Assembly (NCBI GenBank): GCA_034722995.1 | Contig: JAYEOL010000032.1 | Location: forward strand, 1-61,991 | Length of the DNA stretch: 61,991 nt | Direction of reading: 5' to 3' | Source: Candidatus Cloacimonadota bacterium | Lineage (GTDB): Bacteria; Cloacimonadota; Cloacimonadia; JGIOTU-2 | In this document: piece by piece, positions 12,686-54,720 of the stretch | Layout: every line of letters begins with the position of its first letter | How positions within the stretch are numbered: position 1 is the first letter of the stretch | Notes under the pieces: generated by a model | Seen by the model: the letters and a program-made list of their open reading frames with translations, nothing else | Databases searched by the model: none | What the model was told of the DNA's origin: nothing | Position numbers and translations under genes: made by a program

Positions 12686-12691
12686 ATAGAA

Positions 12692-16006: not shown

Positions 16007-16156
16007 TTAGTTAACCAGTTTCGTAGACCTGAATATTACTGAATAAATTATAGTTACCTTTTTAATATCGCATACGAAATTTGAGTTATTAATTTATCAT
16101 AGTTTTATTTTCAACCTAATCTTTTGAAAAATCTGGTGTTTAATTGTTATACTTTT

Positions 16157-16696: not shown

Positions 16697-16725
16697 TTTC
16701 GCTATTAAAATTTGCTTTTACTTCT

Positions 16726-19845: not shown

Positions 19846-19987
19846 TTATTTCACATAACTGCTTAATAATAGACACTTGATTCCCTCCCCGATTTAATCG
19901 GGGATCGCGGGAATGATAGCTAAATAGTGGTTTATTCTTTTCGCCTTCGCGGGAATGCCTCTACAATAAAGTGAACTCATTAATATG

Positions 19988-35958: not shown

Positions 35959-35967
35959 AATATTAAA

Positions 35968-37795: not shown

Positions 37796-37997
37796 AAGTA
37801 AAAAGGTAAAAGAAAAAGATAAAAATTAATTATTTATTAGAATGAGTTATGCAAAATAGATAAATTCACTTCATTTGTCATTCCCGTGAAAACGGGAATC
37901 CATTTAAATAAAGGATATCAGATTCCGCATCAAGTAAGGAATGACAAGAAAAAGGTATTTTGCAGATCTCATATTTATTAGAATCCATGGAGGAAAA

Positions 37998-39425: not shown

Positions 39426-39450
39426 AGTATCAAATTGTTAGGAGTTTTTA

Positions 39451-39783
39451 ATGAAATATTGGGAAAAACCGTTTGGTAAAGAAAAGCCAAAAATCGTTTC
39501 AGGTGAAATCCATATCATCAAAGAGAGATGCAAAGGCTGTAACTTTTGTATTGAATATTGCCCAAGAGATGTATTAGAAGTCTCAGAAGAATTTAATGAA
39601 AAAGGATATCATCCACCAAAAGTTGCAAAACCTGAGATGTGTACCTTTTGTGGGCTTTGCGAACTAATCTGTCCTGACTTTGCGATTTTTGTTACTGAAT
39701 TAAAAGAAACTCCGACTGGGGACCATCCACTTCAGCCAGGTACTTTTGGTGGAAAGGAGGAAAAAATTGTTCAAGCAAAGTAA
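39451..39783 (+). CDS. second 2-oxoacid:ferredoxin oxidoreductase, delta (2x[4Fe-4S]) subunit
   Basis: CKGCNFCIEYCP and CTFCGLCELICP. Confidence 0.8.
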   Translation: MKYWEKPFGKEKPKIVSGEIHIIKERCKGCNFCIEYCPRDVLEVSEEFNEKGYHPPKVAKPEMCTFCGLCELICPDFAIFVTELKETPTGDHPLQPGTFGGKEEKIVQAK

Positions 39784-40921
39784 ACTATACGGTGAATTTT
39801 TTATGCAGGGTGATATCGCTTGTGCAGAAGGAGCACTTTCTGTAGGATGTCGCTTTTTTGGCGGATATCCTATTACCCCAGCTTCTGAAATTGCTGAACG
39901 AATGGCATTCCGTTTACCACTCTTAGATGGCGTTTTTATCCAATTTGAAGATGAAATCGCATCAATGTCTTCTATTCTTGGTGCATCCTGGGCAGGTGTA
40001 AAATCAATGACTGCTACTTCTGGACCTGGAGTTTCTCTTATGTTAGAAAACATCGGGCTTGGTATGATGATGGAAGTTCCTTGCGTTGTGGTAAATGTTC
40101 AACGGGGCTCGCCTTCTACTGGATTGCCTACATCCTGGGGGCAAGCAGATATGATGCAGGCTCGTTGGGGCTCTCATGGTGATTATGGAAGTATCTCACT
40201 TTGTCCAAAATCACCACAAGAATTTTTTGATTTGACTATTGTTGCATTCAACTATGCTGAAAAATATCGTCTCCCTGTTTTTATATTGTCAGATGCTATT
40301 GTCGGTCATATGACAGAAAAAGTGGTTATTCCTCCCGTTGAAGAAATTAAACTGGTTGAAAGAAAATACACCAAGAAAAAGCCCAAGGATTACCTCCCTT
40401 ATGAAGTTGTGGAAGATTTAATTCCAGAGTTCGCAAAGGCAGGTGATGGATATCGTTATCATACAACTGGGCTTACGCATGATGAACGAGGTTACCCTGT
40501 TATGACAGAAGAATGCCAAAAAATATGTGTTACCCGCCTTGTTGAAAAAATAAAGAAACATGCAGATGAAATTATCATGCTTGAAGAAAGAGATATTGAT
40601 GACGCTGATGTAGTTGTTGTTGCTTATGGAATCACTGCGCGAACAGTTGTTCCAGCTATTGAAAAAGCAAAGAAGAAAGGTATAAAAGTTGGATTATTAC
40701 GACTTATAACAGTCTGGCCATTCCCTGAAAAAAGAATAAGGAAATTAGCACAAAAGGTGAAAGGGTTTGTCGTGCCTGAGATAAATTTAGGACAGATTGT
40801 TCTGGAAGTTGAGCGTTGTGCTGCAAAATATGTAACTACTAAATCAATAACACATCCTGGTGGAGGGATTCACAATTTCAATGATATAATCAAGGCTATT
40901 GAAGAGGTGGCTTATGAATAA
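39767..40921 (+). CDS. second 2-oxoacid:ferredoxin oxidoreductase, alpha subunit
   Basis: About 60 percent identical by eye to the 17607-18764 product (GGYPITPASEI, TATSGPGVSLM). A TTG at 39767 lies 6 nt after AGGAGG. The ORF-track ATG is at 39746. Confidence 0.8.
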   Translation: MFKQSKLYGEFFMQGDIACAEGALSVGCRFFGGYPITPASEIAERMAFRLPLLDGVFIQFEDEIASMSSILGASWAGVKSMTATSGPGVSLMLENIGLGMMMEVPCVVVNVQRGSPSTGLPTSWGQADMMQARWGSHGDYGSISLCPKSPQEFFDLTIVAFNYAEKYRLPVFILSDAIVGHMTEKVVIPPVEEIKLVERKYTKKKPKDYLPYEVVEDLIPEFAKAGDGYRYHTTGLTHDERGYPVMTEECQKICVTRLVEKIKKHADEIIMLEERDIDDADVVVVAYGITARTVVPAIEKAKKKGIKVGLLRLITVWPFPEKRIRKLAQKVKGFVVPEINLGQIVLEVERCAAKYVTTKSITHPGGGIHNFNDIIKAIEEVAYE

Positions 40922-41852
40922 TGAAAATATGCAAGCAATAGTAGAACGACCTTCCGATGAAGAACAGCACCATCCAATGGAAGACCTGCTCAGAATGGAT
41001 AGAATGCCACATATCTGGTGCCCTGGATGTGGACTTGGCTCCTGTTTAACTGCATTTGTAGAAGGATTAATTAAAGCTGATGTCAATTTTGATAAGGTTG
41101 CAGTCGTTTCTGGTATTGGCTGCACAGGAAGAGTAGCCGGATATATTAAACTTGATTCCTATCACACTACGCATGGTAGAGCAATCCCTTTTGCAACAGG
41201 CATGAAATTAGCAAATAGAGATTTAACTGTTGTTGTTTTTTCCGGAGATGGTGATTTATTTGCTATTGGTGGCAACCATCTCATTCATGCTGCAAGAAGA
41301 AATGTAGACATTAATGTAATTTGTGTAAACAATTTTATCTATGGAATGACTGGTGGACAGAATGCACCGACAACTCCATTAAAGGCATATAGTTCCACAG
41401 CTCCTTATGGAAATTATGAGCAACCATTCAATTTAGTTGGAGTTGCTGCTGCCTCGGGTGCATCCTATGTCGCCAGATGGACCGCATTACATTTAAGAAG
41501 ATTAACGGATTCTATCGCCGAAGCTGCAAACAAGAAAGGATTTTGCTTTATTGAAATTGTATCACCTTGTGCAACGGTATTCGCAAGAAGAAATATGGGC
41601 GGAACAGGACTGGATTTACTTAAAGAATTCCAGAAAAGATCAATTATTGATCACTCTGCTGATCCAACTAAAATCCCAATAGATATGGACGGTAAGATTA
41701 TCTGTGGTGAATTTATAAATGAAGATAAACCAACATTCTGGGAAAATGTCCAAAGTGGAATCAAAAGTAAAGTAGAAAAAGAGGTAGAATGGGAAGAGAT
41801 GCAAAGAAAATTGAGACAAAAAGTAACCAAAAAAAGCAAATCTATGGAATAA
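40914..41852 (+). CDS. second 2-oxoacid:ferredoxin oxidoreductase, beta subunit
   Basis: WCPGCGLG, GIGCTGR, GDGDLFAIGGNH. ATG at 40914 follows GAGGTGG and overlaps the alpha-subunit stop codon. Confidence 0.85.
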   Translation: MNNENMQAIVERPSDEEQHHPMEDLLRMDRMPHIWCPGCGLGSCLTAFVEGLIKADVNFDKVAVVSGIGCTGRVAGYIKLDSYHTTHGRAIPFATGMKLANRDLTVVVFSGDGDLFAIGGNHLIHAARRNVDINVICVNNFIYGMTGGQNAPTTPLKAYSSTAPYGNYEQPFNLVGVAAASGASYVARWTALHLRRLTDSIAEAANKKGFCFIEIVSPCATVFARRNMGGTGLDLLKEFQKRSIIDHSADPTKIPIDMDGKIICGEFINEDKPTFWENVQSGIKSKVEKEVEWEEMQRKLRQKVTKKSKSME

Positions 41853-42008
41853 AGGCTCAACAAACGTTCTATAAAAATATTGAGTATTTAGTTCCATACC
41901 AATAAAATTGTGGTATCCTGCATCTATATTAAAAATGATGTCATCTCTAAATAATTTCATCACGATATATCAGGATTGGCTCTTGCTTATTCAGATTAGG
42001 AGTAATTT

Positions 42009-42545
42009 ATGAATGAACTTAAAGTAAAAATATCTGGCTTTGGTGGACAAGGTATTATTCTTTCTGCATATATTGTGGGTAAAGCTGCTTCAATCTATGA
42101 TGGTAAGCATGCTTCTATGACACAAGCCTATGGACCCGAGGCAAGAGGTGGTGCTTGTAGTTCTCAAGTGGTTATATCTTCTTATGAAATTGACTATCCG
42201 CTTGTAGATACCGCAGATGTATTAATTGCTCTATCCCAAGAAGGATATGATACATTCTTCCCAATTTTAAAAAAAGATGGAATTTTACTTTACGACTCAG
42301 ACTTAGTCACACATCTTAAATCTAATACAAAGGTAATACCAAAACCAATACCAGCCACAAGAATAGCAGAAAATTTAGGCAAAACTATCGTGGCTAACAT
42401 TGTGATGCTTGGCTTTGCAACTACTCAAGCCAAAATTGCTACACCTGAAGCAATGAAAAAATCCATAAAAGAATCCGTTCCGCAAAAATTTGTTGATTTG
42501 AATTTAACGGCATTTCAGATTGGATTGGAATATAAAGTGGATTAA
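42009..42545 (+). CDS. second 2-oxoacid:ferredoxin oxidoreductase, gamma subunit
   Basis: ISGFGGQGIILS...AYGPEARGG. Confidence 0.85.
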   Translation: MNELKVKISGFGGQGIILSAYIVGKAASIYDGKHASMTQAYGPEARGGACSSQVVISSYEIDYPLVDTADVLIALSQEGYDTFFPILKKDGILLYDSDLVTHLKSNTKVIPKPIPATRIAENLGKTIVANIVMLGFATTQAKIATPEAMKKSIKESVPQKFVDLNLTAFQIGLEYKVD

Positions 42546-42547: not shown

Positions 42548-42955
42548 ATGGCATATAAAATTACAGGAAAAAATATAAAAGATGATATAGTGGAAAAGGT
42601 TGAGGAAATATCCGGACAAAATGTATTTGAATGCTATCAATGCGGAAACTGTTCGGCAGGTTGCCCTGTTGTTGATTATATGGATATTGCTCCACATCAA
42701 ATTATGCGCCTTGCTCAGTTAGGAGCAACTGAGGAAATCTTAAACTGTGAAACAATATGGATATGTTCTGCTTGTCTGCAGTGCTCAACCCGATGTCCAA
42801 AAGGAATTGATGTTGCAAAAGTTATGGAAGCTTTCCGCACAATAAATTTGCGAAAAAGACTGGCACCATTAAATCCTGATGAAATTGCCGAGAAAGACCT
42901 AAAAGAACTGCCTCCGATTGCTTTGGTTGGTGCATTTAGAAAAATGACAGGATAA
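42548..42955 (+). CDS. hdrC: heterodisulfide reductase subunit C-like 2x[4Fe-4S] protein
   Basis: CYQCGNCSAGCP and CSACLQCSTRCP. Starts 3 nt after the OFOR gamma gene. Confidence 0.8.
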   Translation: MAYKITGKNIKDDIVEKVEEISGQNVFECYQCGNCSAGCPVVDYMDIAPHQIMRLAQLGATEEILNCETIWICSACLQCSTRCPKGIDVAKVMEAFRTINLRKRLAPLNPDEIAEKDLKELPPIALVGAFRKMTG

Positions 42956-42960
42956 AGAAA

Positions 42961-43085
42961 CGCCACAGATGCACGGAGAACACAGAGTAAGATAATTAAA
43001 TATGCTCCATTTTAAGAAAAATAAGCATTGTGGAAATATTGAATATTAATTTTAAATAATTCTCTGTGCCTCTGTGTCTCCGTGG
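42961..43085. repeat. MITE-like element between hdrC and hdrB
   Basis: Arms cgccacagatgcacggagaacacagag (42961-42987) and ctctgtgcctctgtgtctccgtggc (43062-43085) are imperfect inverted copies of the GCCAC-(CACNGAG)n family, around a 74-nt AT-rich core. Confidence 0.55.
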
Positions 43086-43110
43086 CAAACATAACTACAA
43101 GGAAAAAATT

Positions 43111-43989
43111 ATGAATCTACCTTATTATCCCGGCTGCACATTAAAAACAAATGCAAAGAATTTTGAAGATTCTGCAATGAGAGTAATGGAAGTTTTAGAT
43201 TATCCATTAAAAGAGATGGAAAATTGGGTCTGCTGTGGCACTGTATTTTCAATGACAAGTGATGACCTGATGCTCCAATTAGGTGCAATTCGCAATCTTT
43301 TACGAGCCGAAGAACAAAATCTGAAGGAATTGATAGTTCTATGTAGTATGTGCTACAATACTTTGAAAAGAGCAAAACAATTCATTACTGAAGATGAAGA
43401 GAATCTAAACAAGGTTAATGACCTGATGTATAAAGAAAACATCCGTTATAAAGGAACAGTTGATATTCATCATCTTTTAAGCATACTTCGTGATAGAGTA
43501 ACTTTTGATGCAATAAAAGAGAAAGTCAAAAAGCCGTTATCCTCGCTAAAAATTGGGGGATATTACGGATGTTTTCTTGTAAGGCCAAAAGAATTTGCAA
43601 TAGATGATTTTGAAGACCCAAGCATTATTGAGGACTTGCTTACATTATTAGGTGCAGATGGTATTGAATTTCCATATCGTCTGGAATGCTGTGGTGCTTA
43701 CCAAACTGTAACAAAAAAAGATGTAACTGCTATGCGAACTTATGAGATAATCAATTCTGCTAGAAGGGCAGGATGCGAAGCAATAGTTACATCTTGCCCA
43801 TTATGTGCGTTTAATCTTGACCAAAGACAGAAAGAAACCGCAAAAGAATTTGTAGAATTTGAACATATCCCTGTCTTTTACTTTACAGAATTGATGTCTA
43901 TTGCATTAGGCTGTGGCTGGGATGAAAATTGGACAAAACTTCATTATGTTAATCCTGAACCATTACTAAAAGAAAAAGGTTTAATATAA
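43111..43989 (+). CDS. hdrB: heterodisulfide reductase subunit B-like protein with two CCG domains
   Basis: PGC...WVCCG...LCSMC and YGC...ECCG...SCPLC. ATG at 43111 follows AAGGAAAA; the ORF-track start at 43066 lies inside the repeat. Confidence 0.8.
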   Translation: MNLPYYPGCTLKTNAKNFEDSAMRVMEVLDYPLKEMENWVCCGTVFSMTSDDLMLQLGAIRNLLRAEEQNLKELIVLCSMCYNTLKRAKQFITEDEENLNKVNDLMYKENIRYKGTVDIHHLLSILRDRVTFDAIKEKVKKPLSSLKIGGYYGCFLVRPKEFAIDDFEDPSIIEDLLTLLGADGIEFPYRLECCGAYQTVTKKDVTAMRTYEIINSARRAGCEAIVTSCPLCAFNLDQRQKETAKEFVEFEHIPVFYFTELMSIALGCGWDENWTKLHYVNPEPLLKEKGLI

Positions 43990-44597
43990 GCCACGAAGAA
44001 CGCGAAGAATCGCTAAAAGATTAAAAGAAACGGTCAAATTGGTGATAGCTTCTTGCTTCAATATATCAAAACCATTATTAGAAAAAGTTTGATGTAAGCA
44101 AGTAAGGACGCAAAGTAAGGCTAAAAAAATGAACAAAGACTTGTTATATGCGAAAGAAGTCTACAGAATAATAGGGGCAGCAATTGAAATACATAAAGAA
44201 CTTGGTCCGGGATTCTTAGAATCAGTCTATGAAGAAGCAATGGTAATTGAATCAAGCAAAAGACAGATACCATACGAAACGCAAGTTAAGATATCGGTTT
44301 ACTATAAAAACCAAAAATTAAAAAAAGAGTTTATAGCTGATTACATTGGATATGACAAAATCATAGTTGAATTTAAGTGTATACCTAAATTAACAAAGGT
44401 AGAAGAAGCTCAGATAATAAATTATTTAAAGGCAACAGGAATAAAAGTTGGAATATTAATTAATTTTGGTAGTCATGGAAAATTGGAATGGAAAAGGTAC
44501 ATCAGAACATTTATTGAAAACAAAAAGGATCATATAAGCCACGAAGAACGCGAAGAATCGCTAAAAGATTAAAAGAAACTGTCAAACTTGGTGATAA
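43985..44597. mobile_element. GxxExxY-gene cassette delimited by 63-65 nt direct repeats
   Basis: tataagccacgaagaacgcgaagaatcgctaaaagattaaaagaaac[g/t]gtcaaa(c)ttggtgata occurs at 43985-44047 and 44533-44597. Two inverted GTGGC-terminated copies follow at 44622-44652 and 44670-44700. Confidence 0.55.
44129..44572 (+). CDS. GxxExxY-family protein (PD-(D/E)XK-like)
   Basis: LGPGFLESVYEEAM (GxxExxY), then ADYIGYDKIIVEFKC (D...ExK). The last 14 residues are encoded by the direct repeat. Confidence 0.75.
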   Translation: MNKDLLYAKEVYRIIGAAIEIHKELGPGFLESVYEEAMVIESSKRQIPYETQVKISVYYKNQKLKKEFIADYIGYDKIIVEFKCIPKLTKVEEAQIINYLKATGIKVGILINFGSHGKLEWKRYIRTFIENKKDHISHEEREESLKD

Positions 44598-44719
44598 CTT
44601 TCATATATCAGAACAGTTCAGCTTTTCGTATTTCTCAGTGTTCTTGGTTGGCTAAAAAAAATATTTTAACCTTTCGTATTTCTTAGTGTTCTTAGTGGCT
44701 AAATATATAAGAGGATAGA

Positions 44720-47113
44720 ATGAAACGAATCGGAGTTTTTATTTGCCATTGTGGTGAAAATATTGCTGATACTGTTGATGTAGAAAGGGTTGCCAAAGAA
44801 ATCGGCAATTATAGCGGAGTTGTTTATAGCACTGATTATACTTTTATGTGTTCTGACCCCGGGCAGAAAATTATAAAAGATGCAATAAAAGAGAAAAAAT
44901 TGGATGGGGTAATTGTAGCAAGTTGTTCACCCACAATGCATGAAGCAACTTTTAGGAAAGCGGCCGCATCTGCCGGATTAAATCCATATCAATGTGAAAT
45001 AGCCAATATTCGTGAGCAATGCAGTTGGGTTCATTCTAACAAAGAAGAGGGTACAAAAAAAGCAATTCTTATCATAAAATCTATGATTGAAAAGCTAAAA
45101 TTGAATGAATCATTATACCCAATATCTTCACCGACAAATAAGAATGTGTTAATAATAGGTGCTGGAATTGCCGGGATACAAGCGGCATTGGACATTGCTG
45201 ATGCAGGACATAAAGTTTTTTTAGTGGAAAGGAGACCATATATTGGTGGGCATATGATTCAATTATCAGTAACCTTTCCAACTCTTGATTGCTCGCAATG
45301 TATTTTAACACCCAAAATGGTTCAAGTTGACCAGAGTGAGAATATTGACCTCTTCGTTAATAGCGAAATAGAATCAATTGATGGTGCTGTGGGTAATTTT
45401 AAGGTCAAAATTAAGAGAAAAGCACAATATATAAATCCTGATATATGCACTGGTTGTGGGGATTGTATAGATGTTTGTCCAGTACTTGTTCCGGATGAAT
45501 ACGAGGAAGGGCTTTCATATCGCAAAGCAGTTTATATGTCGTTTGCACAGGTGATTCCATATACATATACATTGGATATTGATAATTGTTTGGGATTAAA
45601 CCCTATTGCTTGTGGGAAATGCAAAGATGCCTGTAAGGAAGATGCTATCAATTATGACGCAAAAGATGAAATTATTGAAAAAGATGTTGGGGCAGTTATT
45701 GTTGCAACTGGATATGATTTATATCCTATGGAAAATATCGGAGAATATGGTTATGGAAAATATCCAGATGTGGTTAGTGGACTGCAGTTTGAAAGACTTA
45801 TCTTTGCGGTTGGTCCATCAGGTGGAAAAATGCTACGACCATCGGATGGAAAGCCGGTAAAGGAAATTGCTTTTATCCAATGTGCTGGATCACGGGACCC
45901 GGAGAGACATCTTTCTCATTGCTCAAAAATATGCTGTATGTATACAGCCAAACAGGCAAAGATGTTTAAAAATAAGGTGCCGGATGGACAGTCATATATC
46001 TTTTATATTGATATTAGAGCTACTGGAAAAGATTATGAAGAGTTTATTCAAACAGCTCAATTGGAGCAAAAGTTAGTTTATATCCGAGGTAAGGTCTCCC
46101 GTATTTATAAAGAAAATGGTAAGATGATTATCAATGCTTTTGACACTCTCTCCGGCAAGAAAATTGAAGCAAAAGTGGATATGGTAGTTCTCGCATTAGG
46201 AATGATACCAAGTTTTGGAACTGATGAACTGGCAAGAAAACTTAATCTTTCAGAAGGAACATCTGGATTTCTGACAGAAGCACATCCTAAATTAAGACCG
46301 GTAGAAACCGTTAATCCTGGATTTTTCCTTGCCGGAACATGCCAGGCGCCAAGAGATATACCTGAAACTGTTGCACAGGCCTCTGGGGCGGCTTCAAAAG
46401 CGTTATCATTATTGGCACATGATACTATAGAAAAATCGCCAGTTGTTGTGAAAGTTGATGTTGAAAAATGTACCGGATGTGGAGATTGTGTTAAGAAATG
46501 TCCTTTTGATGCAATTACTATTGATAAAGTTCAAAATATCGCGGTAATTGATGAAATGAAATGTAAAGGATGTGGCTTTTGTATTCCAGAATGCCCTGAG
46601 GATGCATTAGAACAAAAGAACCTCTCTGACCGGCAAATCTATAATATGATAGATGGCATATTAGAGAAGGATAAGCAGATTGTAAAAGGTAAAGAATTTG
46701 AGCCTAAAATTGTGTGCTTTTTTAGTAATATTGGTGCTTATCAGGCCGCAGACCTTGCTGGTATTGGAAGAATGGAATATAAACCAAATGCTTTAATAAT
46801 TAGACTTCTTTCAATTTCAATGTTAGACGACAAGCACATTTTATATGCTTTAAAAAATGGTGCTGATGGCGTGCTTATCAGCGGAAGTCATCCGGGTGAA
46901 TCACCTTATCCTGGAGCAAGTAAGAAAACAAAAGAAAGAGTAGATGCTCTTAAAAATAAAATAAAAGAGGCAGGACTAAATCCTGAGAGAATAAAATTAG
47001 AATGGTATGCAGGAAGACAAGCAAAAGGATTCGCTGGTTTCGTAGATACATTTGTTGAATATCTTAAAAAGCAGGGTCCGGTCCAGTCAGAAAATTGGAA
47101 GACTTTAAATTAG
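44720..47113 (+). CDS. hdrA: heterodisulfide reductase subunit A-like flavoprotein fused to an MvhD-like C-terminal domain
   Basis: IGVFICHCGENIA, IIGAGIAGIQAALD (FAD), CSQCILTPKM, two ferredoxin inserts (CTGCGDCIDVCP; CTGCGDCVKKCP, CKGCGFCIPECP). The C-terminal 137 aa align to MvhD. Terminates with TAG. Confidence 0.85.
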   Translation: MKRIGVFICHCGENIADTVDVERVAKEIGNYSGVVYSTDYTFMCSDPGQKIIKDAIKEKKLDGVIVASCSPTMHEATFRKAAASAGLNPYQCEIANIREQCSWVHSNKEEGTKKAILIIKSMIEKLKLNESLYPISSPTNKNVLIIGAGIAGIQAALDIADAGHKVFLVERRPYIGGHMIQLSVTFPTLDCSQCILTPKMVQVDQSENIDLFVNSEIESIDGAVGNFKVKIKRKAQYINPDICTGCGDCIDVCPVLVPDEYEEGLSYRKAVYMSFAQVIPYTYTLDIDNCLGLNPIACGKCKDACKEDAINYDAKDEIIEKDVGAVIVATGYDLYPMENIGEYGYGKYPDVVSGLQFERLIFAVGPSGGKMLRPSDGKPVKEIAFIQCAGSRDPERHLSHCSKICCMYTAKQAKMFKNKVPDGQSYIFYIDIRATGKDYEEFIQTAQLEQKLVYIRGKVSRIYKENGKMIINAFDTLSGKKIEAKVDMVVLALGMIPSFGTDELARKLNLSEGTSGFLTEAHPKLRPVETVNPGFFLAGTCQAPRDIPETVAQASGAASKALSLLAHDTIEKSPVVVKVDVEKCTGCGDCVKKCPFDAITIDKVQNIAVIDEMKCKGCGFCIPECPEDALEQKNLSDRQIYNMIDGILEKDKQIVKGKEFEPKIVCFFSNIGAYQAADLAGIGRMEYKPNALIIRLLSISMLDDKHILYALKNGADGVLISGSHPGESPYPGASKKTKERVDALKNKIKEAGLNPERIKLEWYAGRQAKGFAGFVDTFVEYLKKQGPVQSENWKTLN

Positions 47114-47194
47114 AATAAATTTCTGTTAGCAAAGATAAGAAATTGATAAATTCTTCCGAGTTTTTATAAAGAAAATTTATATGGAGGATTGATA

Positions 47195-47887
47195 ATGTCA
47201 GAGTCAGAAAAAGATAAAATGGTTAAAATCTATATTTTGGGCGAGGGCTTTGATGTGCCTGCTGGCTCAACTATTGTTACTGCAATGGAATATGCCGGAT
47301 TTCAATTAACAACTGGTGTTGGCTGTAGAGAAGGCTTTTGCGGCGCTTGTGCAACCCTATATCGTGAAAAAGGTGACTATAAATTACAGGCAGGTCTTGC
47401 CTGCCAAACTGTGGTTTCTGACGGAATGTATATCGCACAGATACCATTTGTGCCTGCTGAAAAACCTATCTATGACATTACAAAACTAACGCCTGATATT
47501 GATTCTATTAAAACACTTTATCCAACTGTATTCCGTTGCGTATCTTGTAATACTTGCACTAAAGCCTGCCCACAAGATATAGAGGTTATGGACTATGTTC
47601 AAGCATTAATAAAAGGAGATATTGCAAAGGCAGCAGATTTGTCATTTGATTGCATTCGCTGTGGACTTTGTGCATTAAGATGTCCCTCTGAAATTGTACA
47701 ATACAATGCCGGAATTTTAGCTCGTCGCCTTACAGGAAGGTATCTCCTCAAAAAAAGTCCTGACCTTGAACCCCGTGTGAAAGAAATCGCTGAAAGAAAA
47801 TTTGATAAAGAACTTGAAAAATTAATGAGAACAGACAAAGAAAAAATAAAAAAATTATATTATGAAAGAGAAATAAAACTCGGATAG
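47195..47887 (+). CDS. SdhB/FrdB-like iron-sulfur protein ([2Fe-2S] plus two CxxCxxCxxxCP motifs)
   Basis: GCREGFCGACATLY...LAC, then CVSCNTCTKACP and CIRCGLCALRCP. ATG at 47195 lies 7 nt after GGAGG. Terminates with TAG. Confidence 0.75.
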   Translation: MSESEKDKMVKIYILGEGFDVPAGSTIVTAMEYAGFQLTTGVGCREGFCGACATLYREKGDYKLQAGLACQTVVSDGMYIAQIPFVPAEKPIYDITKLTPDIDSIKTLYPTVFRCVSCNTCTKACPQDIEVMDYVQALIKGDIAKAADLSFDCIRCGLCALRCPSEIVQYNAGILARRLTGRYLLKKSPDLEPRVKEIAERKFDKELEKLMRTDKEKIKKLYYEREIKLG

Positions 47888-48033
47888 ATTTAATGAAAGA
47901 TTGTCCCGACCTGTCGGGATCCCGATTCATCGGGGAAGGATTGGAAATGCTAAATTTTGCAAAAATTTTAAGATCTATACGAACCTTTTAATTTTTATAA
48001 ATCTTTAAAAAAAATTATTAATTAGGAGAGGCT

Positions 48034-49701
48034 ATGTATCCAGAATATATGCAAGAATCAATAAAAAATGTTGAGAGAACAAGACCTGCAAGGTTAAAAT
48101 TAGCAAAGTCAGGAAAGCAATTATTCCCTCGTATGTCCGCAGAAGAAAGGGATGTAGTTCTAAACAAATTTCACCCAGATTACAAAACAAATGCAAGACG
48201 GGAAATAAGAATAGGTCCAAATAAAGGAGAAAGAATAACAACAAAAGTAGCTGAACTTCTTGAGACCTACTCAAGAATTAATCCAGCAGACTTTGATTTA
48301 TCCCATCCTGATTATGAGACGGATGTGTTGGTAATAGGTGCTGGTTCTGCAGGATTCTCTGCTTCTATACTTGCTTCAGAAAATGGGGCAGATGTAATTC
48401 TCGTTACTAAACTCAGAGTTGGAGATTCAAACTCAATGATGGCTCAAGGTGGCATTCAAGCTGCAGTCAGACCTGACGATTCACCTGTTTTACATTATTT
48501 AGATGTTATTGGTGGAGGTCATTTTGATAATAAACCCGAGTTAGTTAACGCATTGGTTTCAGATGCTCCGGATGCAATAAAATGGTTGCAAGACATGGGG
48601 GTTATGTTTGATAGAAATCCTGATGGAACAATGTTTACGAAATCGGGTGGTGGAACTTGCAGACCACGAATGCACTCTGCCAGAGACTATACTGGTGCAG
48701 CTATCTGCAGAACTCTGCGTGATGAGGTTTATAACAGACCTGATAAGATTAAAATCCTTGAACATCAACCTGCTGTGGAGCTAATAAAAGATAGTGATGG
48801 ACGCGTCGCAGGTGCGGTCCTTTATCATCTTGAAAATAAAGAATATTTTACTGTTAAAGCCAAGGCTACAATCCTTTCTACAGGTGGGTTTGGCAGACTG
48901 CACATACAGGGATTTGAAACCACAAATCACTACGGCGCTACCGCAGATGGTCTGGTAATGGGCTATAGGGCTGGCGCAAACTTATTATATATGGATTCTG
49001 TCCAGTATCATCCAACCGGAGCTGTATATCCACTGCAAATTATGGGATTTCTATGCACAGAAAAATTGCGCGGAATGGGTGCACAGCCTGTAAATAAAAA
49101 TGGTGAACTCTTTGTATATCCTCTTGAACCAAGAGATATAGAGGCTTCATCTTTCATACGGGAATGTACAGAGAGAGGAAACGGAATAAAAACTCCATCT
49201 GGAAATGTAGGAATCTGGCTGGATACTCCACTTATTGAACAGATAAATGGCGAAGGAGCAATTAAAGAAAATCTACCTGCTATGTTAAGACAGTTTGGTC
49301 GCTTTGATGTGGACATAACAAAAGAGCCGATGCTCGTTTATCCTACTTTGCATTATCAAAACGGCGGAATAGAAATAAACGACCATTGCGAAACAAAGTT
49401 GCCTGGACTTTATGTTGCTGGCGAGGCTTCTGGCGGGGTGCATGGTAGAAATAGATTAATGGGCAATTCACAATTAGATTTAATAGTATTTGGCAGAAGA
49501 GCTGGTAAATATGCGACAGAATATGCAAAAGGTGCAAAACTTGGCAAATTGAATTTAGACCATGTTTACGAATATGAAAAAGAAGTAGAAAAATTTGGTA
49601 TTGATAGGAAAAATATCTCCCCAATGGTTCTACCTGACTATATTCCAGAAGCAGTGAAAAAGAGACAGTATACTGCCCACTATGAAGGAACGCTTAGATA
49701 A
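48034..49701 (+). CDS. fumarate reductase / succinate dehydrogenase flavoprotein-family protein with ~95-aa N-terminal extension
   Basis: VLVIGAGSAGFSAS (FAD), SMMAQGGIQAA, VQYHPTG, CTEKLRGMGA, GGVHGRNRLMGNSQLDLIVFGRRAG. Confidence 0.8.
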   Translation: MYPEYMQESIKNVERTRPARLKLAKSGKQLFPRMSAEERDVVLNKFHPDYKTNARREIRIGPNKGERITTKVAELLETYSRINPADFDLSHPDYETDVLVIGAGSAGFSASILASENGADVILVTKLRVGDSNSMMAQGGIQAAVRPDDSPVLHYLDVIGGGHFDNKPELVNALVSDAPDAIKWLQDMGVMFDRNPDGTMFTKSGGGTCRPRMHSARDYTGAAICRTLRDEVYNRPDKIKILEHQPAVELIKDSDGRVAGAVLYHLENKEYFTVKAKATILSTGGFGRLHIQGFETTNHYGATADGLVMGYRAGANLLYMDSVQYHPTGAVYPLQIMGFLCTEKLRGMGAQPVNKNGELFVYPLEPRDIEASSFIRECTERGNGIKTPSGNVGIWLDTPLIEQINGEGAIKENLPAMLRQFGRFDVDITKEPMLVYPTLHYQNGGIEINDHCETKLPGLYVAGEASGGVHGRNRLMGNSQLDLIVFGRRAGKYATEYAKGAKLGKLNLDHVYEYEKEVEKFGIDRKNISPMVLPDYIPEAVKKRQYTAHYEGTLR

Positions 49702-49704
49702 CAA

Positions 49705-50331
49705 ATTTCTAAATCCGAAATTCTAAATCCGAAATAAGTTCAAATTTACCCTGTGAACTAAAATGCAAAATAATAAACATTATGATTTAGAAGAACGTCC
49801 GCCAGTTGGCGGATTGCTAAGAGGGTTAGAAATTTAGTTAAGAAAATACCAAAAACAATGTCAAATTTAGAATATGGAAAGCAGTTAATAAGATCTTCTA
49901 GTTCTGTTGGAGCAAATTACACTTGCCCCGTTAGATAAAACTTAATGATGGGTAAGCAGATTAATAAAATTGTTGCCAATAAGTATATAAACTTGTGGTT
50001 TAATACAAGGAGTAATTATCTAACGGGGTGAAAAGCAAATGAATCATTAAGTAAAAAAGATTTTCTAATGCGGATAAAGATTTGTCGCAAAGAATCTAAA
50101 GAAAGTACATTTTGGTTAAAATTATGTGAAGTAAAAAATGAAGCAGAAGAAAAAGAGAGAAAATTTCTAATAGGTGAAGCAACTGAATTAATGAAAATAT
50201 TTGGATCTATTGTTGCCAAAGCAAAATAACAATAAGTTTTAGAACTTTTTAAATTTTGGTTATTAGAATTTTGAAATTGTTTAGTCCCCGATTAAATCGG
50301 GGATAGAAATTAGAATTTAGAATTTGTAAAT
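49705..50331. mobile_element. second four-helix-bundle cassette, bounded by inverted TTCTAAAT-type repeats
   Basis: Left arm atttctaaatccgaaattctaaatccgaaat (49705-49735). Right arm agaaattagaatttagaatttgtaaat (50305-50331) is related in reverse complement. Confidence 0.45.
49763..50229 (+). pseudogene. four-helix-bundle (23S IVS protein family) gene disrupted by two small palindromic insertions
   Basis: MQNNKHYDLEER, then the 14-nt palindrome ccgccagttggcgg (49799-49812), whose removal restores the frame into IAKRVRNLVKKIPKTMSNLEYGKQLIRSSSSVGANY. A ~110-nt insert with ccccgttagat / atctaacgggg ends follows (49921-50033). The frame then resumes as ANESLSKKDFLMRIKICRKESKESTFW... Confidence 0.7.
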
Positions 50332-50342
50332 TGGAGGAATAA

Positions 50343-50810
50343 ATGCCAAAACCGAAGATAGCTTTTTATTGGTGTGCTTCTTGCGGTGGATGTGAAGAAG
50401 CCATAATTGACTTAAATGAAGATATACTTAAAGTAGCTGATTCAGTTAATATTGTCTTCTGGCCCTGCGCTATGGATTTCAAATATGCTGATGTACGAAA
50501 AATGAAAAAAGATGAAATAGATGTCACATTCATAAATGGAGCTATTCGCACAGATGAACAAGAAGAAATGGCAAAACTACTTAGAGAAAAATCAAAAATA
50601 ATTGTATCTTTTGGAGCTTGTTCACAATTAGGAGGAATCCCAGGATTAGCTAATTTTTGGGATAGAGAAACCATATTTAATTCTTCTTATGGCAAGAATT
50701 GTCCCTCTATTGATAATCCAGAAGGAATCACACCTCAGACAGTTTCAAAAGTGCCTGAAGGGGAATTAACCTTGCCTGCCTTTCATAACACAGTAAAGAC
50801 TACTGACTAG
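50343..50810 (+). CDS. mvhG: [NiFe] hydrogenase small subunit (MvhG-like), N-terminal part ending at an in-frame TAG
   Basis: FYWCASCGGCEEAIIDL, WPCAMD, GACSQLGGIPG. The TAG at 50808-50810 is in frame with the next ORF. Confidence 0.75.
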   Translation: MPKPKIAFYWCASCGGCEEAIIDLNEDILKVADSVNIVFWPCAMDFKYADVRKMKKDEIDVTFINGAIRTDEQEEMAKLLREKSKIIVSFGACSQLGGIPGLANFWDRETIFNSSYGKNCPSIDNPEGITPQTVSKVPEGELTLPAFHNTVKTTD

Positions 50811-50819
50811 GTTATTGAT

Positions 50820-51344
50820 GTGGATTATTATCTTCCAGGTTGTTCTCCAGCCCCATACTTAACGATGAAAGCTATCAATACAATTTTATCTGGTGAATTA
50901 CCTCCAAAAGGCACAGTCCTTGCTCCAAATAAAGCTTTATGTGAAACTTGCTCTCTTAATGAAACCAAGCCGGAAAAATTATCAATAGAAAAGATAAATA
51001 GAATTTCTCTTGTTGAGGCAGACCCGGAAAAATGCTTCCTTGCACAAGGAATTATTTGTATGGGACCAGTAACTCGCTCTGGATGCAGCGAAGAGGGAGA
51101 TGGCAGATGCATTAAAGCTAATATGTCCTGTCGTGGATGTTACGGACCAATCTCTGAGGTAAAAGATGTAGGTGCCAAGATGATTTCTGCTCTTGCCTCT
51201 ATTCTCGGTCTTGAGGGTGAAGAAAATATGAGCGAGGAAGAAGTAGAAAAACTAATGTCCCAAGTTGTTGACCCAGCTGGTACTTTCTATCGCTTTTCTT
51301 TGTCAAAATCACTGTTGATGAGGAAAAGGAATGATAAACATTGA
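50820..51344 (+). CDS. mvhG: [NiFe] hydrogenase small subunit (MvhG-like), C-terminal part
   Basis: The same frame continues directly from codon 50811 (VIDVDYYLPGCSP...). Distal and medial cluster cysteines: CETC, CMGPVTRSGC, CRGCYGP. No RBS upstream of the GTG at 50820. Confidence 0.7.
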   Translation: MDYYLPGCSPAPYLTMKAINTILSGELPPKGTVLAPNKALCETCSLNETKPEKLSIEKINRISLVEADPEKCFLAQGIICMGPVTRSGCSEEGDGRCIKANMSCRGCYGPISEVKDVGAKMISALASILGLEGEENMSEEEVEKLMSQVVDPAGTFYRFSLSKSLLMRKRNDKH

Positions 51345-51521
51345 TAGAAGAAAAACGAAAAATAGTCTAATAAATAATTCCCCTCCGTCTGGAATTCTGT
51401 CTCCCGATATATCTGGAGACAAGACTGATTAGAGAAGCAAGCCGTAGCCAGAAATGAAGTGAAATTATCTATTTTGCATATCTCATATAGTCATTATGAA
51501 AAAAAGGAGAAATAATTAATT

Positions 51522-52982
51522 ATGAAAAAAATATCCATAAATCCAATTACCAGATTAGAGGGACATGGCAAGATTGAAATCTTCCTTGATGATGACGGAA
51601 ATGTTAGTAATGCATATCTGCAAGTACCCGAGTTACGAGGCTTTGAACAATTTTGTATTGGTAGGCCCGTTGAAGAACTGCCAAGAATAACTCCCCGTAT
51701 TTGTGGCGTTTGCCCTATGGCACATCATATGGCATCTACTAAAACTGTTGATGCAGTATATAATATAAAACCAACTCCAACTGCTGTAAAATTACGCAAT
51801 TTAGTTTATGATGCTTATATTATGGAAGACCATCTATTGCACTTCTTCTTTTTAGGGGGACCTGACTTTATTGTAACCCCATCTGCTCCACCGGAAGAAA
51901 GAAATATCCTTGGTGTTATTGGAAAAGTCGGATTAGAAATCGGCACAAAAGTTATTGCCACAAGAAGAAAAATCAGGGAAATTGTAACTCATCTTTCTGG
52001 CAGAATTATCCATCCAGTTGGAGGACTTCCCGGCGGTGTTTCTAAGAATTTAATTGAAGAAAAAAGAAAAGAATTCCTAAAGTATGCAAAACAAGCATTA
52101 GAATTTGCCCAAGAATCCATTAAAATCTTTAATGATATAGTTCTTAAAAATGATAAATATTTGGATTTGATTGTCGGAGATATTTATAAACATAAGACCT
52201 ATTATATGGGTTTAGTAGACGAAAACAACAAAGTTAATTTCTATGATGGGAAGGTTAGGGTTGTAGACCCAGAAGGCAAGGAAATTCTAAAATTTGAAGC
52301 AAAAGATTATCTAAAATACATTGCAGAACATGTTGAGCCCTGGAGTTATATGAAATTTCCATTTCTTAAAAAAATTGGTTGGAAAGGATTTGTTGATGGG
52401 AAAAATAGCGGTGTGTATCGCGTTGCCCCTCTTGGAAGATTGAATGCCTCTAATGGCATGGCAACTCCTATTGCACAAGTTAAATATGAAAAAATGTATG
52501 ATAAATTAGGCGGAAAACCTGCTCATAATACACTTGCCTTCCATTGGGCAAGATTGATTGAAGTAATCTATGCTGCTGAACATATGGTTGAGTTATTAAA
52601 AGATAAAACTATTACTTCACCAGATATTCGTAATCTTCCTACTGGGGTTCCAAATGAAGGTGTTGGTATAACAGAAGCAGCTCGTGGAACTCTATTCCAT
52701 CATTATAAAACCGATGAAAATGGCATTGTTACTGCCGTTAATCTGCTCGTTGCAACTGTTGCGAATGCAGCTGGAATGTCAATGTCAATTGCAAAAGCGG
52801 CTCAGAAACTTATAAAAAATAGTAAAGTTAATGATGGCTTGCTTAATATGGTAGAAATGGCATTCCGAGCTTATGACCCCTGCCTTGCCTGTGCTACTCA
52901 TTCTTTGCCGGGTAAAACTCCTCTTATTGTGAATATACATAATAATGCTGGGAATATAATAAAAACTATTAGGAGAGACTGA
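51522..52982 (+). CDS. mvhA: [NiFe] hydrogenase large subunit (group 3c / MvhA-like)
   Basis: N-terminal RLEGHGKI and RICGVCPMAHH. C-terminal DPCLACATH followed by a 25-aa cleavable tail. Confidence 0.88.
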   Translation: MKKISINPITRLEGHGKIEIFLDDDGNVSNAYLQVPELRGFEQFCIGRPVEELPRITPRICGVCPMAHHMASTKTVDAVYNIKPTPTAVKLRNLVYDAYIMEDHLLHFFFLGGPDFIVTPSAPPEERNILGVIGKVGLEIGTKVIATRRKIREIVTHLSGRIIHPVGGLPGGVSKNLIEEKRKEFLKYAKQALEFAQESIKIFNDIVLKNDKYLDLIVGDIYKHKTYYMGLVDENNKVNFYDGKVRVVDPEGKEILKFEAKDYLKYIAEHVEPWSYMKFPFLKKIGWKGFVDGKNSGVYRVAPLGRLNASNGMATPIAQVKYEKMYDKLGGKPAHNTLAFHWARLIEVIYAAEHMVELLKDKTITSPDIRNLPTGVPNEGVGITEAARGTLFHHYKTDENGIVTAVNLLVATVANAAGMSMSIAKAAQKLIKNSKVNDGLLNMVEMAFRAYDPCLACATHSLPGKTPLIVNIHNNAGNIIKTIRRD

Positions 52983-52987
52983 AATTC

Positions 52988-53224
52988 GCCACTGTCAGGG
53001 AATGGCCCCTGACGGCTCCTTTTTACTGTCCACTTGTCTGGGCGTAGCCCGTCTTGGCTCGGGCCAAGCCGAGACAGGCCATCCGAAGCACGGCAGAGTC
53101 GTCACGGACCATTCCGTGACGAAAGCCCAATTCTATATTTTTCCACATATTTTGTCCGAAGGATCTGCCCGCCAGAGGCGGATCTGTCCTCCGAAGGAGG
53201 ATCTGCCTTCGGCATGACCTTTGG
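52988..53224. repeat. composite array of GC-rich hairpin modules
   Basis: Contains inverted copies of modules also present at 15342-15413 (gtcacggaatggtccgtgrcg; gagccgtcaggg..ccctgac), 14719-14745 (gtcttggctnggccaagcc) and 59041-59105 (GGATC-punctuated hairpins). Confidence 0.75.
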
Positions 53225-53300
53225 CATGAAAAGAGAACCTAAACTTTAAATTATCCTCCAAAGGAGGATCCACCTTTGGCGGAAAAATTATTAATTTTGT

Positions 53301-53753
53301 ATGAAGACACTATTTCTTGGACTTGGCAATCCGATTCTTACTGATGATGGAGTCGGAATTCGTATCGCAAAAGAAATTGGAGAAAAATGTAAAAATGTTG
53401 ATGTGGCTGAAGCAAGTGCGGCTGGTTTTAGAATTATAGATGAAATTATTGGCTATGACAGATTAATAATTATTGATTCAATAAAAACTGGCAAAGCAAG
53501 ACCTGGAACTCTTCATAAATTTTTAGTAAACGATTTTGCAAAAACTCTCCATCTTTCAACTCCTCATGATATTAGCCTTTTTGAAGCTTTTAAAGTAGTG
53601 AGAAAAGAAAATGTAAAACTCCCCTCACAAATTGAAATCTATGCTATGGAAGTGGAAGACACCTCAACCTTTTCTGAGAAGTGCACAGAACTTGTTGAAT
53701 CTGCAATTCCAAAAACCGTTCAACAAATTATGAAAGAGCAAAATCTGACATAA
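53301..53753 (+). CDS. hydrogenase maturation endopeptidase (HybD/FrhD family)
   Basis: LFLGLGNPILTDDGVG ... IIIDS ... HD. Confidence 0.8.
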   Translation: MKTLFLGLGNPILTDDGVGIRIAKEIGEKCKNVDVAEASAAGFRIIDEIIGYDRLIIIDSIKTGKARPGTLHKFLVNDFAKTLHLSTPHDISLFEAFKVVRKENVKLPSQIEIYAMEVEDTSTFSEKCTELVESAIPKTVQQIMKEQNLT

Positions 53754-53835: not shown

Positions 53836-53911
53836 GGGGCTGTAGCTCAGTTGGGAGAGCATTTGTCTGGCAGACAAAAGGTCACGGGTTCGAGCCCCGT
53901 TAGCTCCACCA
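53836..53911 (+). tRNA. tRNA-Ala (GGC)
   Basis: ggggctgtagctcagttgggagagcatttgtctggcagacaaa...tagctccacca. G3:U70 pair present, anticodon loop CTGGCAG. Confidence 0.9.
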
Positions 53912-54092
53912 TCTTTCGCACATTTATTTCATAAATGAGCTTCAGATGGCAAGCCATATTTTTTTTATTCATTCCATTGAAGTCTAAATTCAATTATTCA
54001 GGGTGAAAGATGTCTTCCGTAGTCTATATTCTCTATATCAATGCTCCAGCGTAGAATAAGTTGACGGAGGAAGACACTATTAGTTAAAAATA

Positions 54093-54332
54093 ATGTATTA
54101 TACTTACATAATTGAAAGTAAAACAGTCCCAACTAAAAAGTATATTGGCTATACCTCTGATTTGAAGAAACGATTAAATGCTCACAATTCAGGAAATTGT
54201 AAATTCACATCAAAATATAAACCCTGGAAAATTAATACTTATATCGCTTTCATTGATAGAGAAAAAGCTATGAAATTTGAGAAGTATCTTAAATCTGGTT
54301 CAGGACATGCCTTTACAAAAAAACATTTCTAA
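54093..54332 (+). CDS. GIY-YIG (URI-domain) nuclease-family small protein
   Basis: MYYTYIIES...KKYIGYTSDLKKRLNAHNSG...EKAMKFEKYLKSGSG. Confidence 0.8.
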   Translation: MYYTYIIESKTVPTKKYIGYTSDLKKRLNAHNSGNCKFTSKYKPWKINTYIAFIDREKAMKFEKYLKSGSGHAFTKKHF

Positions 54333-54720
54333 ATGAAATTAAAATAAAACATCCCTTTAAAACCAGCCTCTCCGCTGTCATTCCATATAATTTGGGAATG
54401 CATTTGATTTCATGCTTTTTCTAGCAATCTGGGTTTTGCCATAAACCTACAGTGTTTTTATTGACAAAAAATTCTATAAAATATTTCTTTATTTTAAATC
54501 TCTTATGCTTCATAATTAGAATAGGATTTGGAGATATTGATAATAATAACTTAATGAAAAATACATGTCCCCGATACATCGGGAGACAAAGGAGAACGAA
54601 TCCCGATTTATCGGGATGAGTCAGAGTTATCAAATTTTCTCTGTGTTCTCTGTGTCCCCGCCTGCCAAAGCCTTGTGCGGCGGGCAGGTCTGCGGTGAAG
54701 ATTTTCAATGAAGAATAACT

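Follow-up and report, generated by a model that had tools for sequence, protein, structure and literature searches.

An Hdr-Frd-Mvh gene cluster in a Cloacimonadota bacterium encodes a candidate H2-driven bifurcating fumarate reductase

We analyzed a 61,991-nucleotide stretch of DNA (hereafter, the window) from a Candidatus Cloacimonadota bacterium (assembly GCA_034722995.1, contig JAYEOL010000032.1). Positions 42548-53753 of its + strand carry a run of genes for heterodisulfide reductase-like (Hdr) proteins, a fumarate reductase-like pair (FrdB and FrdA) and a Mvh-type [NiFe] hydrogenase. The open reading frames (ORFs) of this run and their translations were checked by Pfam and NCBIfam profile searches. 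The cluster is real and widely conserved, and it probably lets an anaerobe use H2 to reduce fumarate and ferredoxin together. Judged by sequence comparison, its products would, on balance, form one soluble H2-driven Mvh-Hdr-Frd oxidoreductase that bifurcates electrons to fumarate and ferredoxin.

Of the comparative evidence, the pairing of a constant acceptor with interchangeable donors argues most strongly that FrdBA works with the Hdr core. A scan for FrdA-like proteins, with one genome per GTDB species, gave at least 593 loci, of which the best 80 were fetched for comparison. These were labeled Cloacimonadota, Neomarinimicrobiota, Aminicenantes, Sumerlaeota/BRC1, Delongbacteria, Myxococcales, Bacteroidales, Spirochaetales and others, and their FrdA proteins are 64-95% identical to that of the window. 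When the window's proteins were mapped onto these loci, frdB preceded frdA in all 75 loci with enough upstream sequence and in all 37 well-flanked loci (i.e., those with at least 8 kb upstream and at least 5 kb downstream). Among the latter, hdr genes are adjacent on the same strand in 32, and kor genes for a 2-oxoacid:ferredoxin oxidoreductase (OFOR) adjoin the hdr genes or are embedded in them in 27. The strand of frdA carries all matched genes (664/664), and sucCD is co-located with frdBA in several relatives. The hdr-frd(-mvh) sets, which an initial annotation of this DNA had put forward as one functional unit, are syntenic and co-directional across phyla.

The donor genes differ among the same 37 loci, with Mvh in 6 and FlxABCD in 21. 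The H2-dependent donor genes, mvhGA, occur in Cloacimonadota, Sumerlaeota and Marinimicrobia loci, the gene order in Marinimicrobia being mvhGA-hdrCBA-mvhD-protease-frdBA. Aminicenantes-type loci, whose FrdA is 65-68% identical to that of the window, have the order hdrCB-korDABG-hdrA-flxDCBA-frdBA and an NADH donor (FlxD, MvhD-like; FlxC, Fer4; FlxB, Fer4_22; FlxA, NAD_binding_1 and DHODB Fe-S domains). A third type consists of hdrA(-mvhD)-hdrC-hdrB-frdB-frdA alone, with no donor nearby. Since FrdA stays 65-95% identical while the donor changes between Mvh and Flx, FrdAB appears to be tied to Hdr and not to one donor.

The genes of the run, and those immediately upstream, are as follows.

34822-36834, +, sucC and sucD, succinyl-CoA synthetase (ORFs and translations)
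36950-38558, +, two-subunit class I fumarate hydratase, alpha at 36950-37795 and beta at 37941-38558 (NCBIfam NF004885, 432 bits, and NF005310, 285 bits, both above cutoff)
39451-42545, +, korD/A/B/G, four-subunit OFOR (NCBIfam NF006412, 559 bits; cutoff 411)
42548-42955, +, HdrC-like protein, 135 aa (two CxxCxxCxxxCP [4Fe-4S] motifs; Pfam Fer4_17/Fer4_8)
43066-43989, +, HdrB-like protein (Pfam CCG, twice)
44129-44572, +, GxxExxY / PD-(D/E)XK_3 gene, an insertion outside the enzyme (TIGR04256, 139 bits)
44720-47113, +, HdrA flavoprotein (FAD, six Cys clusters) fused to a MvhD [2Fe-2S] domain (5odc_A match; FlpD domain)
47189-47887, +, FrdB-like Fe-S subunit, 232 aa (Pfam Fer2 and Fer4_9; [2Fe-2S] and two [4Fe-4S] motifs)
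48034-49701, +, FrdA/TfrA-like flavoprotein (FAD_binding_2, E 4e-77)
about 49764-50230, +, broken 23S-rRNA-IVS-protein-type gene, outside the enzyme (frame analysis, fold, PF05635)
50343-51344, +, MvhG, [NiFe]-hydrogenase small subunit, with an in-frame TAG (halves match the VhuG model)
51522-52982, +, MvhA, [NiFe]-hydrogenase large subunit, Mvh/Vhu type, group 3c-like (5odc_F match; VhuA model)
53301-53753, +, hydrogenase maturation endopeptidase (TIGR00072, 101 bits, above cutoff; Pfam HycI)

All genes named in the initial annotation were recovered on the + strand at these coordinates from ORFs, Pfam and NCBIfam, but mvhG, which it had given as an ordinary subunit, is interrupted by an in-frame TAG. 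The OFOR, fumarase and succinyl-CoA synthetase that it placed upstream are indeed present (korDABG, fumAB and sucCD, by NCBIfam and ORFs), and the small cassette insertions that it mentioned are the GxxExxY PD-(D/E)XK gene and the broken 23S-rRNA-IVS-protein-type gene. The stop codon of korG lies only 2 nt upstream of the hdrC start. As first noted, the run has no membrane anchor: positions 42548-53753 hold no ORF for one, none of the cluster proteins is anchor-like, and no strongly hydrophobic segment was seen (maximum Kyte-Doolittle 19-residue mean, <=1.66). The cluster proteins are thus predicted to be soluble.

In the Hdr core, residues 3-648 of HdrA align with HdrA of M. thermolithotrophicus (5odc_A) at 659 bits, with all cluster cysteines aligned, and a FlpD/MvhD domain follows at residues 664-784 (79 bits to MvhD), in agreement with the annotated HdrA-MvhD fusion. 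By this similarity, HdrA is a full-length homologue of the structurally characterized bifurcating HdrA; its NCBIfam HdrA2 score is 924 bits (cutoff 1100). The motifs first read in the other two subunits, two CxxCxxCxxxCP in HdrC and two CCG domains in HdrB, were found again. The best NCBIfam model for HdrC is TIGR03290 (HdrC; 69 bits, cutoff 160). HdrB, whose true start is probably the ATG at 43111, scores 134-144 bits against solved HdrBs (144 bits to 7bkb_B), and its NCBIfam scores for HdrB (173 bits, cutoff 345) and MFR SdhE (167 bits) are each below cutoff; both of its CCG motifs are complete. In the hydrogenase, MvhA matches MvhA 5odc_F over its full length (410 bits) and the NCBIfam VhuA model at 421 bits (cutoff 800), and contains the motifs RICGVCPMAHH and DPCLACATH.

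The flavoprotein FrdA has its best structural matches in SdhA of M. smegmatis Sdh1 and in E. coli FrdA. An AlphaFold2 (AF2) model of moderate quality (pLDDT 74, pTM 0.80) superimposes on E. coli FrdA with a TM score of 0.64; as far as such a model goes, the fold is confirmed, and the N-terminal extension of the protein is left unexplained. This extension of 93 residues is conserved in the FrdA family (74% mean column identity), and the usual C-terminal SdhA domain is missing. The fumarate-site residues are H326, T342, E343, R346, R367, H440 and R474; the equivalents of E. coli FrdA H232, T244, E245, R248, R287, H355 and R390 are kept in 80 of 81 sequences, the remaining one being gapped. In NCBIfam, TfrA of thiol:fumarate reductase ranks first (340 bits, cutoff 718, covering model positions 6-426 of 546), followed by SdhA/FrdA and then NadB. 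L-aspartate oxidase, the other flavoprotein that the initial annotation had kept in view, was ruled out: FrdA is constantly paired with the Fe-S subunit FrdB, its nadB score is 285 bits (cutoff 453) with TfrA as the best family match, and the position aligned to E. coli NadB Glu121, which we take to be the Asp-specific residue, is S, P, A, H or L, never Glu.

FrdB has 12 Cys residues that are invariant in 76 orthologues, four for a [2Fe-2S] cluster and eight in two complete CxxCxxCxxxCP motifs. Because the second motif is also full (4/4 Cys invariant in the 76 sequences), there is no [3Fe-4S] motif. Searches against PDB sequences gave generic ferredoxin-type matches and a 24-bit SdhB match only, so the label "FrdB-like" is based on domain architecture and not on close similarity. 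No CCG domain was found in FrdB by Pfam or NCBIfam, and its score against the TfrB model is 34 bits (cutoff 385). With both FrdA and FrdB below the cutoffs of the respective models, the published name "TfrAB" appears to denote resemblance, not membership. The pair also has no recognizable electron-input module: Pfam, NCBIfam and hydrophobicity analyses revealed no membrane anchor, NAD(P)-binding domain or CCG domain in FrdAB.

The FrdB family was further searched in a library of 1.84 billion representatives, which yielded 597 representatives at E <= 0.001. Proteins of 101-291 aa make up 149 of the best 150. Three of these 150 were scanned, and none was a fusion of FrdB with a CCG domain or with Hdr; two are stand-alone Fe-S proteins. 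The third, P0178, was the only long protein scanned (727 aa); in it, FrdB and FrdA are naturally fused in gene order, and the region of the FrdA N-terminal extension sits between the two parts. At the level of sequence, this search supports the FrdB-FrdA pairing and adds nothing new on contact with Hdr.

Covalent attachment of FAD enables succinate oxidation in E. coli FrdA/SdhA, as known from His44 variants. In the window's FrdA, this His is replaced by Asn133, and Asn occupies the position in 81/81 sequences. Loss of the covalent-FAD His, together with a [4Fe-4S] motif in place of [3Fe-4S] in FrdB, favors fumarate reduction over succinate oxidation.

From the gene content, cofactor motifs, catalytic residues, synteny and donor swap described above, we infer a single complex, bifurcation at HdrA and the following order of electron transfer. 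One soluble multi-subunit enzyme would comprise the Mvh-type [NiFe] hydrogenase, HdrA-MvhD, HdrC, HdrB, FrdB and FrdA. MvhAG would oxidize H2, and the [2Fe-2S] cluster of the fused MvhD domain would relay the electrons to HdrA, whose FAD would split the pair. The low-potential electron would leave through the ferredoxin-like domains of HdrA to ferredoxin or to KorD of the adjacent OFOR. The high-potential electron would move through HdrC and the clusters of the two CCG domains of HdrB, enter the three FrdB clusters and reach the non-covalently bound FAD in FrdA, which would reduce fumarate to succinate. Fumarate (+33 mV) would thus replace CoM-S-S-CoB. For each fumarate reduced, one reduced ferredoxin would become available for carboxylation of succinyl-CoA to 2-oxoglutarate, a yield that fits the presence of kor genes within the operon. 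After NF006412, the next-best NCBIfam model for Kor is 2-oxoglutarate synthase alpha, and Kor is the likely consumer of reduced ferredoxin.

The simplest wiring would run through HdrCB, because FrdBA itself lacks a donor site, the single HdrB is the only CCG protein and TfrB offers a precedent. TfrB of methanogens combines a FrdB-like half with a CCG half in one chain, and FrdB, HdrC and HdrB of the window each match a separate part of the NCBIfam TfrB model; by analogy, this fusion is a precedent for direct contact between FrdB and CCG clusters. The failure of the "TfrAB" label at its defining CCG feature likewise argues for direct wiring through HdrCB. A more specific form of the model is possible, though we consider it less likely than not. 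In it, Mvh, Hdr and Frd would form a single complex that possibly docks Kor, the non-cubane clusters of HdrB would serve as a pure relay to FrdB with no thiol substrate, the low-potential electron would go straight to 2-oxoglutarate synthase, and the 93-residue extension of FrdA could have a docking role. If this relay reading is true, the enzyme would be the first of the Hdr-type bifurcating enzymes with a C=C bond as the high-potential acceptor.

Several points weigh against a bifurcating complex. All Hdr, Mvh and Tfr subunits score below the NCBIfam equivalog cutoffs. In the literature searched, no biochemical or structural demonstration with a purified enzyme was found for any Mvh- or Flx-linked member. 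A scan for promoter-like (72 vs 66 expected) and terminator-like (19 vs 12 expected) sites was near chance and thus uninformative, leaving a single transcript unestablished; the sole convincing + strand terminator-like hairpin lies after mvhA (52992-53015). HdrB may act on a thiol or disulfide substrate, because it keeps both complete CCG motifs. The reaction would release a great deal of energy, so bifurcation is thermodynamically feasible but not required. In 5 of the 37 well-flanked loci, frdBA has no adjacent hdr genes. Finally, if the TAG in mvhG is real, the H2 arm in this genome may be dead or compromised. The last four points each bear on an alternative.

The HdrB motifs fit a scheme of two enzymes linked by a diffusible carrier, which was drawn by Williams et al. 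2021 (PMC8542988) and is one option in Mitchell et al. 2024 (PMC11636981). Mvh-HdrABC would bifurcate to ferredoxin and a disulfide, either a low-molecular-weight heterodisulfide or a DsrC-like protein, and a thiol:fumarate reductase would re-oxidize the resulting thiol. In methanogens, the two CCG motifs form the site of disulfide reduction; FrdA, moreover, matches TfrA best among the families, and the literature labels the pair tfrAB. We nevertheless regard this scheme as improbable. FrdB lacks the CCG part, i.e., the thiol-oxidizing half of TfrB (34 vs 385 bits), the presence of one HdrB per cluster leaves no second thiol site for the Frd side, and no carrier gene is conserved in the cluster among the compared loci.

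The energetics bear on whether electrons are bifurcated at all, and in which direction. With assumed E0' values of -414 mV for H2, +33 mV for fumarate/succinate (PMC5861303) and approximately -500 mV for ferredoxin, the reaction 2 H2 + fumarate + Fd(ox) is estimated to yield about -70 kJ, and it is on this value that the feasibility of bifurcation was judged. The transfer from H2 to fumarate is about 450 mV downhill, so coupling is unneeded, and the sequence holds no proof of bifurcation. HdrA-MvhD, HdrC and HdrB might then only conduct electrons to FrdAB in an H2:fumarate oxidoreductase that reduces no ferredoxin. This we consider quite improbable, in that HdrA keeps the full set of cluster cysteines, including those of the C-terminal ferredoxin domain at the low-potential exit, and 27 of 37 loci have genes for a ferredoxin-consuming OFOR within the operon or inserted between hdrB and hdrA.

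The initial annotation had offered two directions, fumarate as the high-potential acceptor in place of the heterodisulfide or confurcation of electrons from succinate and reduced ferredoxin to H2. The second could serve, for example, syntrophic propionate oxidation via the methylmalonyl-CoA pathway, in which succinate oxidation is the step needing energy input, and Cloacimonadota have been proposed in the literature as syntrophic propionate oxidizers. The window itself has relevant genes. On the - strand, positions 10523-21442 encode a Na+-translocating methylmalonyl-CoA decarboxylase set (beta, biotin carrier, gamma-like and alpha), a glyoxalase-fold epimerase-like protein, a second four-subunit OFOR and malic enzyme, which by their sequences may provide a succinate/propionate pathway context for the fumarate reductase. 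Reverse operation is nonetheless disfavored and, in our view, very improbable. The covalent-FAD His is invariably lost and FrdB lacks the high-potential [3Fe-4S] motif. The reverse reaction is estimated at about +12 kJ at 1 Pa H2 with ferredoxin at -500 mV and would be feasible only at a fumarate/succinate ratio of about 10^-3. In addition, the Flx (NADH) and Mvh versions share their acceptor module in known or proposed autotrophs. The first direction, with fumarate in the place of the heterodisulfide, is the best fit to the hdr-frd synteny and to a flavoprotein that is not NadB, and it matches published hypotheses. With methylmalonyl-CoA decarboxylase, malic enzyme and the second OFOR in the window, fermentation, in which fumarate would accept electrons on the route to succinate/propionate, is as plausible a role as autotrophy.

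The five loci without neighboring hdr genes would also agree with an ordinary Mvh-Hdr complex and a separate FrdAB that are adjacent but independent. Such an arrangement is hardly credible given that co-directional adjacency occurs under at least 8 phylum-level labels regardless of the donor, and that FrdAB itself lacks an electron donor site.

The condition of the hydrogenase arm is a separate matter, compatible with any of the above explanations. The in-frame TAG of mvhG is at 50808-50810. The two halves of MvhG match positions 4-129 and 139-284 of the VhuG model (83 bits, cutoff 450), and 18/18 relatives, one of them 96% identical, have CAG/CAA (Gln) at the TAG position, within the conserved MvhG stretch ...TDQVIDVDYYLPG... 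Recoding of TAG, by pyrrolysine or by reassignment, was considered and rejected, since TAG stops fumB, hdrA and frdB and the relatives have Gln. Either the nonsense allele is real, or a single base is wrong in the sequence. In the former case, MvhG would be cut after residue 155 and the hydrogenase arm would be inactive or decaying here; the Hdr-Frd core would use another donor, or the locus would be non-functional. The Gln in all relatives, the use of TAG as a true stop elsewhere in the window, and the many insertions and repeats at the locus speak for decay. Still, we consider it rather unlikely: a single C-to-T difference could be a sequencing or assembly error, the remaining genes of the cluster are full length, and a GTG 3 codons downstream makes a two-piece MvhG conceivable.

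The insertions at the locus are of several kinds. An 82-nt direct repeat (87% identity; 43957-44038 and 44505-44586), which duplicates the 3' end of hdrB, brackets the GxxExxY gene, and GxxExxY-type genes occupy other spacers of the cluster in relatives L001-L006. The 641-nt frdA-mvhG spacer holds the 23S-rRNA-IVS-protein-type (PF05635) gene. Two lesions disrupt this gene, an N-terminal frameshift and an approximately 100-nt insert (49927-50025) that folds into a long, well-paired hairpin (-34 kcal/mol); after removal of this insert, the PF05635 match has an E value of 8e-12. A second gene of the PF05635 family in the window, at 15578-15955 on the - strand, has an unbroken ORF. An Rfam scan of the window matched the rRNA operon and tRNAs only, and no regulatory RNA was found in the cluster.

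Palindromes of the form CCCGA-N2-8-TCGGG are present in 21 copies across the window (0.1 expected), e.g., at 38560, 38578, 39395, 47905, 47921, 50287, 54570 and 54602, and fill many intergenic spacers, including several in the hdr-frd-mvh run. Three others (5489, 6015 and 6470) are within the large subunit (LSU) rRNA match, which spans 3283 nt against a model of 2925 positions. Inverted repeats of these palindromes, about 60 nt long (38546-38607 and 39369-39436), flank a class I S-adenosylmethionine (SAM) methyltransferase gene (38753-39331) between fumB and korD, a place where relatives L003, L004 and L011 have no methyltransferase match. A 35-nt sequence of the fumA-fumB spacer (37842-37876) recurs, inverted and 94% complementary, in the mvhG-mvhA spacer (51452-51486). 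In the mvhA-protease spacer (53168-53280), just past the hairpin at 52992-53015, a 27-nt GC-rich palindromic unit (TCCTCCGAAGGAGGATCTGCCTTCGGC-like) occurs three times. After the protease gene, the region 53836-57462 has tRNA-Ala(GGC), a gene for a 79-aa GIY-YIG protein (54093-54332) and, following it, a gene for an Eco57I/MmeI-like type IIG restriction-modification enzyme of 913 aa (54721-57462); this region may be an island at the tRNA.

If the proposed function is correct, it would explain how fumarate is reduced in quinone-poor anaerobes and how very low-potential ferredoxin is supplied for 2-oxoglutarate synthase in the reductive branch of the tricarboxylic acid (TCA) cycle. The outcome would be cheaper CO2 fixation, or an added energy-conserving step in succinate/propionate fermentation. 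FrdA-like proteins of >65% identity are present in at least 593 species genomes of many phyla, where they are currently mislabeled as "FAD-binding protein", "TfrAB" or "SdhA", and an assay of one member would annotate the whole family. The window's own value in this respect is limited, as the cluster and the hypothesis are published and cultivable hosts of the Flx version (T. mobilis and P. thermosuccinogenes) are better test systems.

Among known systems, complex II shares its dicarboxylate-binding and proton-transfer residues with the window's enzyme, which differs in having no membrane anchor, covalent-FAD His or [3Fe-4S] motif. The thiol:fumarate reductase TfrAB of Methanothermobacter, reportedly described by Heim and colleagues in 1998, is closer. 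It is likewise a soluble fumarate reductase, TfrB has the same [2Fe-2S] and two [4Fe-4S] motifs, and TfrA is the best family match of FrdA. However, the CCG domains of TfrB are on the same polypeptide, whereas those of the window are on the separate HdrB, and in contrast to TfrA the window's FrdA has no C-terminal domain and carries the N-terminal extension. MvhAGD-HdrABC of methanogens (5ODC) is matched in HdrA, HdrB, MvhD and MvhA at 659, 134-144, 79 and 410 bits, respectively, with cofactor ligands kept. Unlike in that complex, the MvhD domain is part of the HdrA chain, HdrC is short at 135 aa, MvhG is not intact, scores are below equivalog cutoffs, and electrons presumably go via FrdBA to fumarate instead of to CoM-S-S-CoB.

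Both the gene cluster and the bifurcation idea are already published, and genomic and transcriptomic studies have reached the same hypothesis (PMC8542988, PMC6315080, PMC7282089, PMC13147460); the window is a further member of a described, still hypothetical type. The present analysis adds statistics on the donor swap, the observation that the covalent-FAD His is invariably lost, the failure of the "TfrAB" label at its defining feature and the nonsense codon. In tubeworm symbionts and Thioflavicoccus mobilis, Rubin-Blum et al. 2019 (PMC6315080) found korABCD and tfrAB mixed in among the flxABCD-hdrABC genes, and suggested a single complex feeding 2-oxoglutarate:ferredoxin oxidoreductase (OGOR) and fumarate reductase. 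Mitchell et al. 2024 (PMC11636981) reported co-expression of most genes of the flx-hdr-kor-tfr cluster, the exception being tfrAB. In Pseudoclostridium thermosuccinogenes, a "succinate operon" consists of genes for fumarase, Flx-Hdr and fumarate reductase (PMC7282089), and, as cited there, Koendjbiharie and van Kranenburg 2019 proposed a bifurcating fumarate reductase. A 2026 survey (PMC13147460) summarizes the bifurcating idea and still asks for verification. The five-subunit fumarate reductase of Hydrogenobacter thermophilus, reportedly described by Miura et al. 2008 and summarized in that survey, is, like the enzyme proposed here, soluble, anchor-free and linked to the reductive TCA (rTCA) cycle; its donor is NADH, and it is not reported as bifurcating.

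Compared by published description, the Flx-Hdr-Frd clusters of the symbionts, T. mobilis and P. thermosuccinogenes have in common with the window an Hdr core and a soluble two-subunit fumarate reductase, often with kor interspersed, and bifurcation to fumarate and ferredoxin has been proposed for them. Their donor is FlxABCD (NADH), whereas that of the window is MvhAG (H2). The window has the published traits of Flx/Mvh-Hdr-Kor-Frd clusters, in that frdBA is co-directional with hdr and korDABG abuts hdrC.

The closest counterpart is in the same phylum. Williams et al. 2021 (PMC8542988) described metagenome-assembled genomes (MAGs) of Ca. Celaenobacter (Cloacimonadota) with one cluster for thiol:fumarate reductase (TFR), OGOR, fumarase, succinyl-CoA synthetase, group 3c Mvh and Hdr, which is the same gene inventory as in the window, and inferred an H2-driven rTCA cycle with a heterodisulfide intermediate between Hdr and TFR. 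The nonsense codon in mvhG and several cassette insertions set the window apart from the Celaenobacter cluster. Unlike the heterodisulfide of the Celaenobacter model, the window, with a FrdB that has no CCG domain and a single HdrB, favors direct wiring from Hdr to fumarate reductase.

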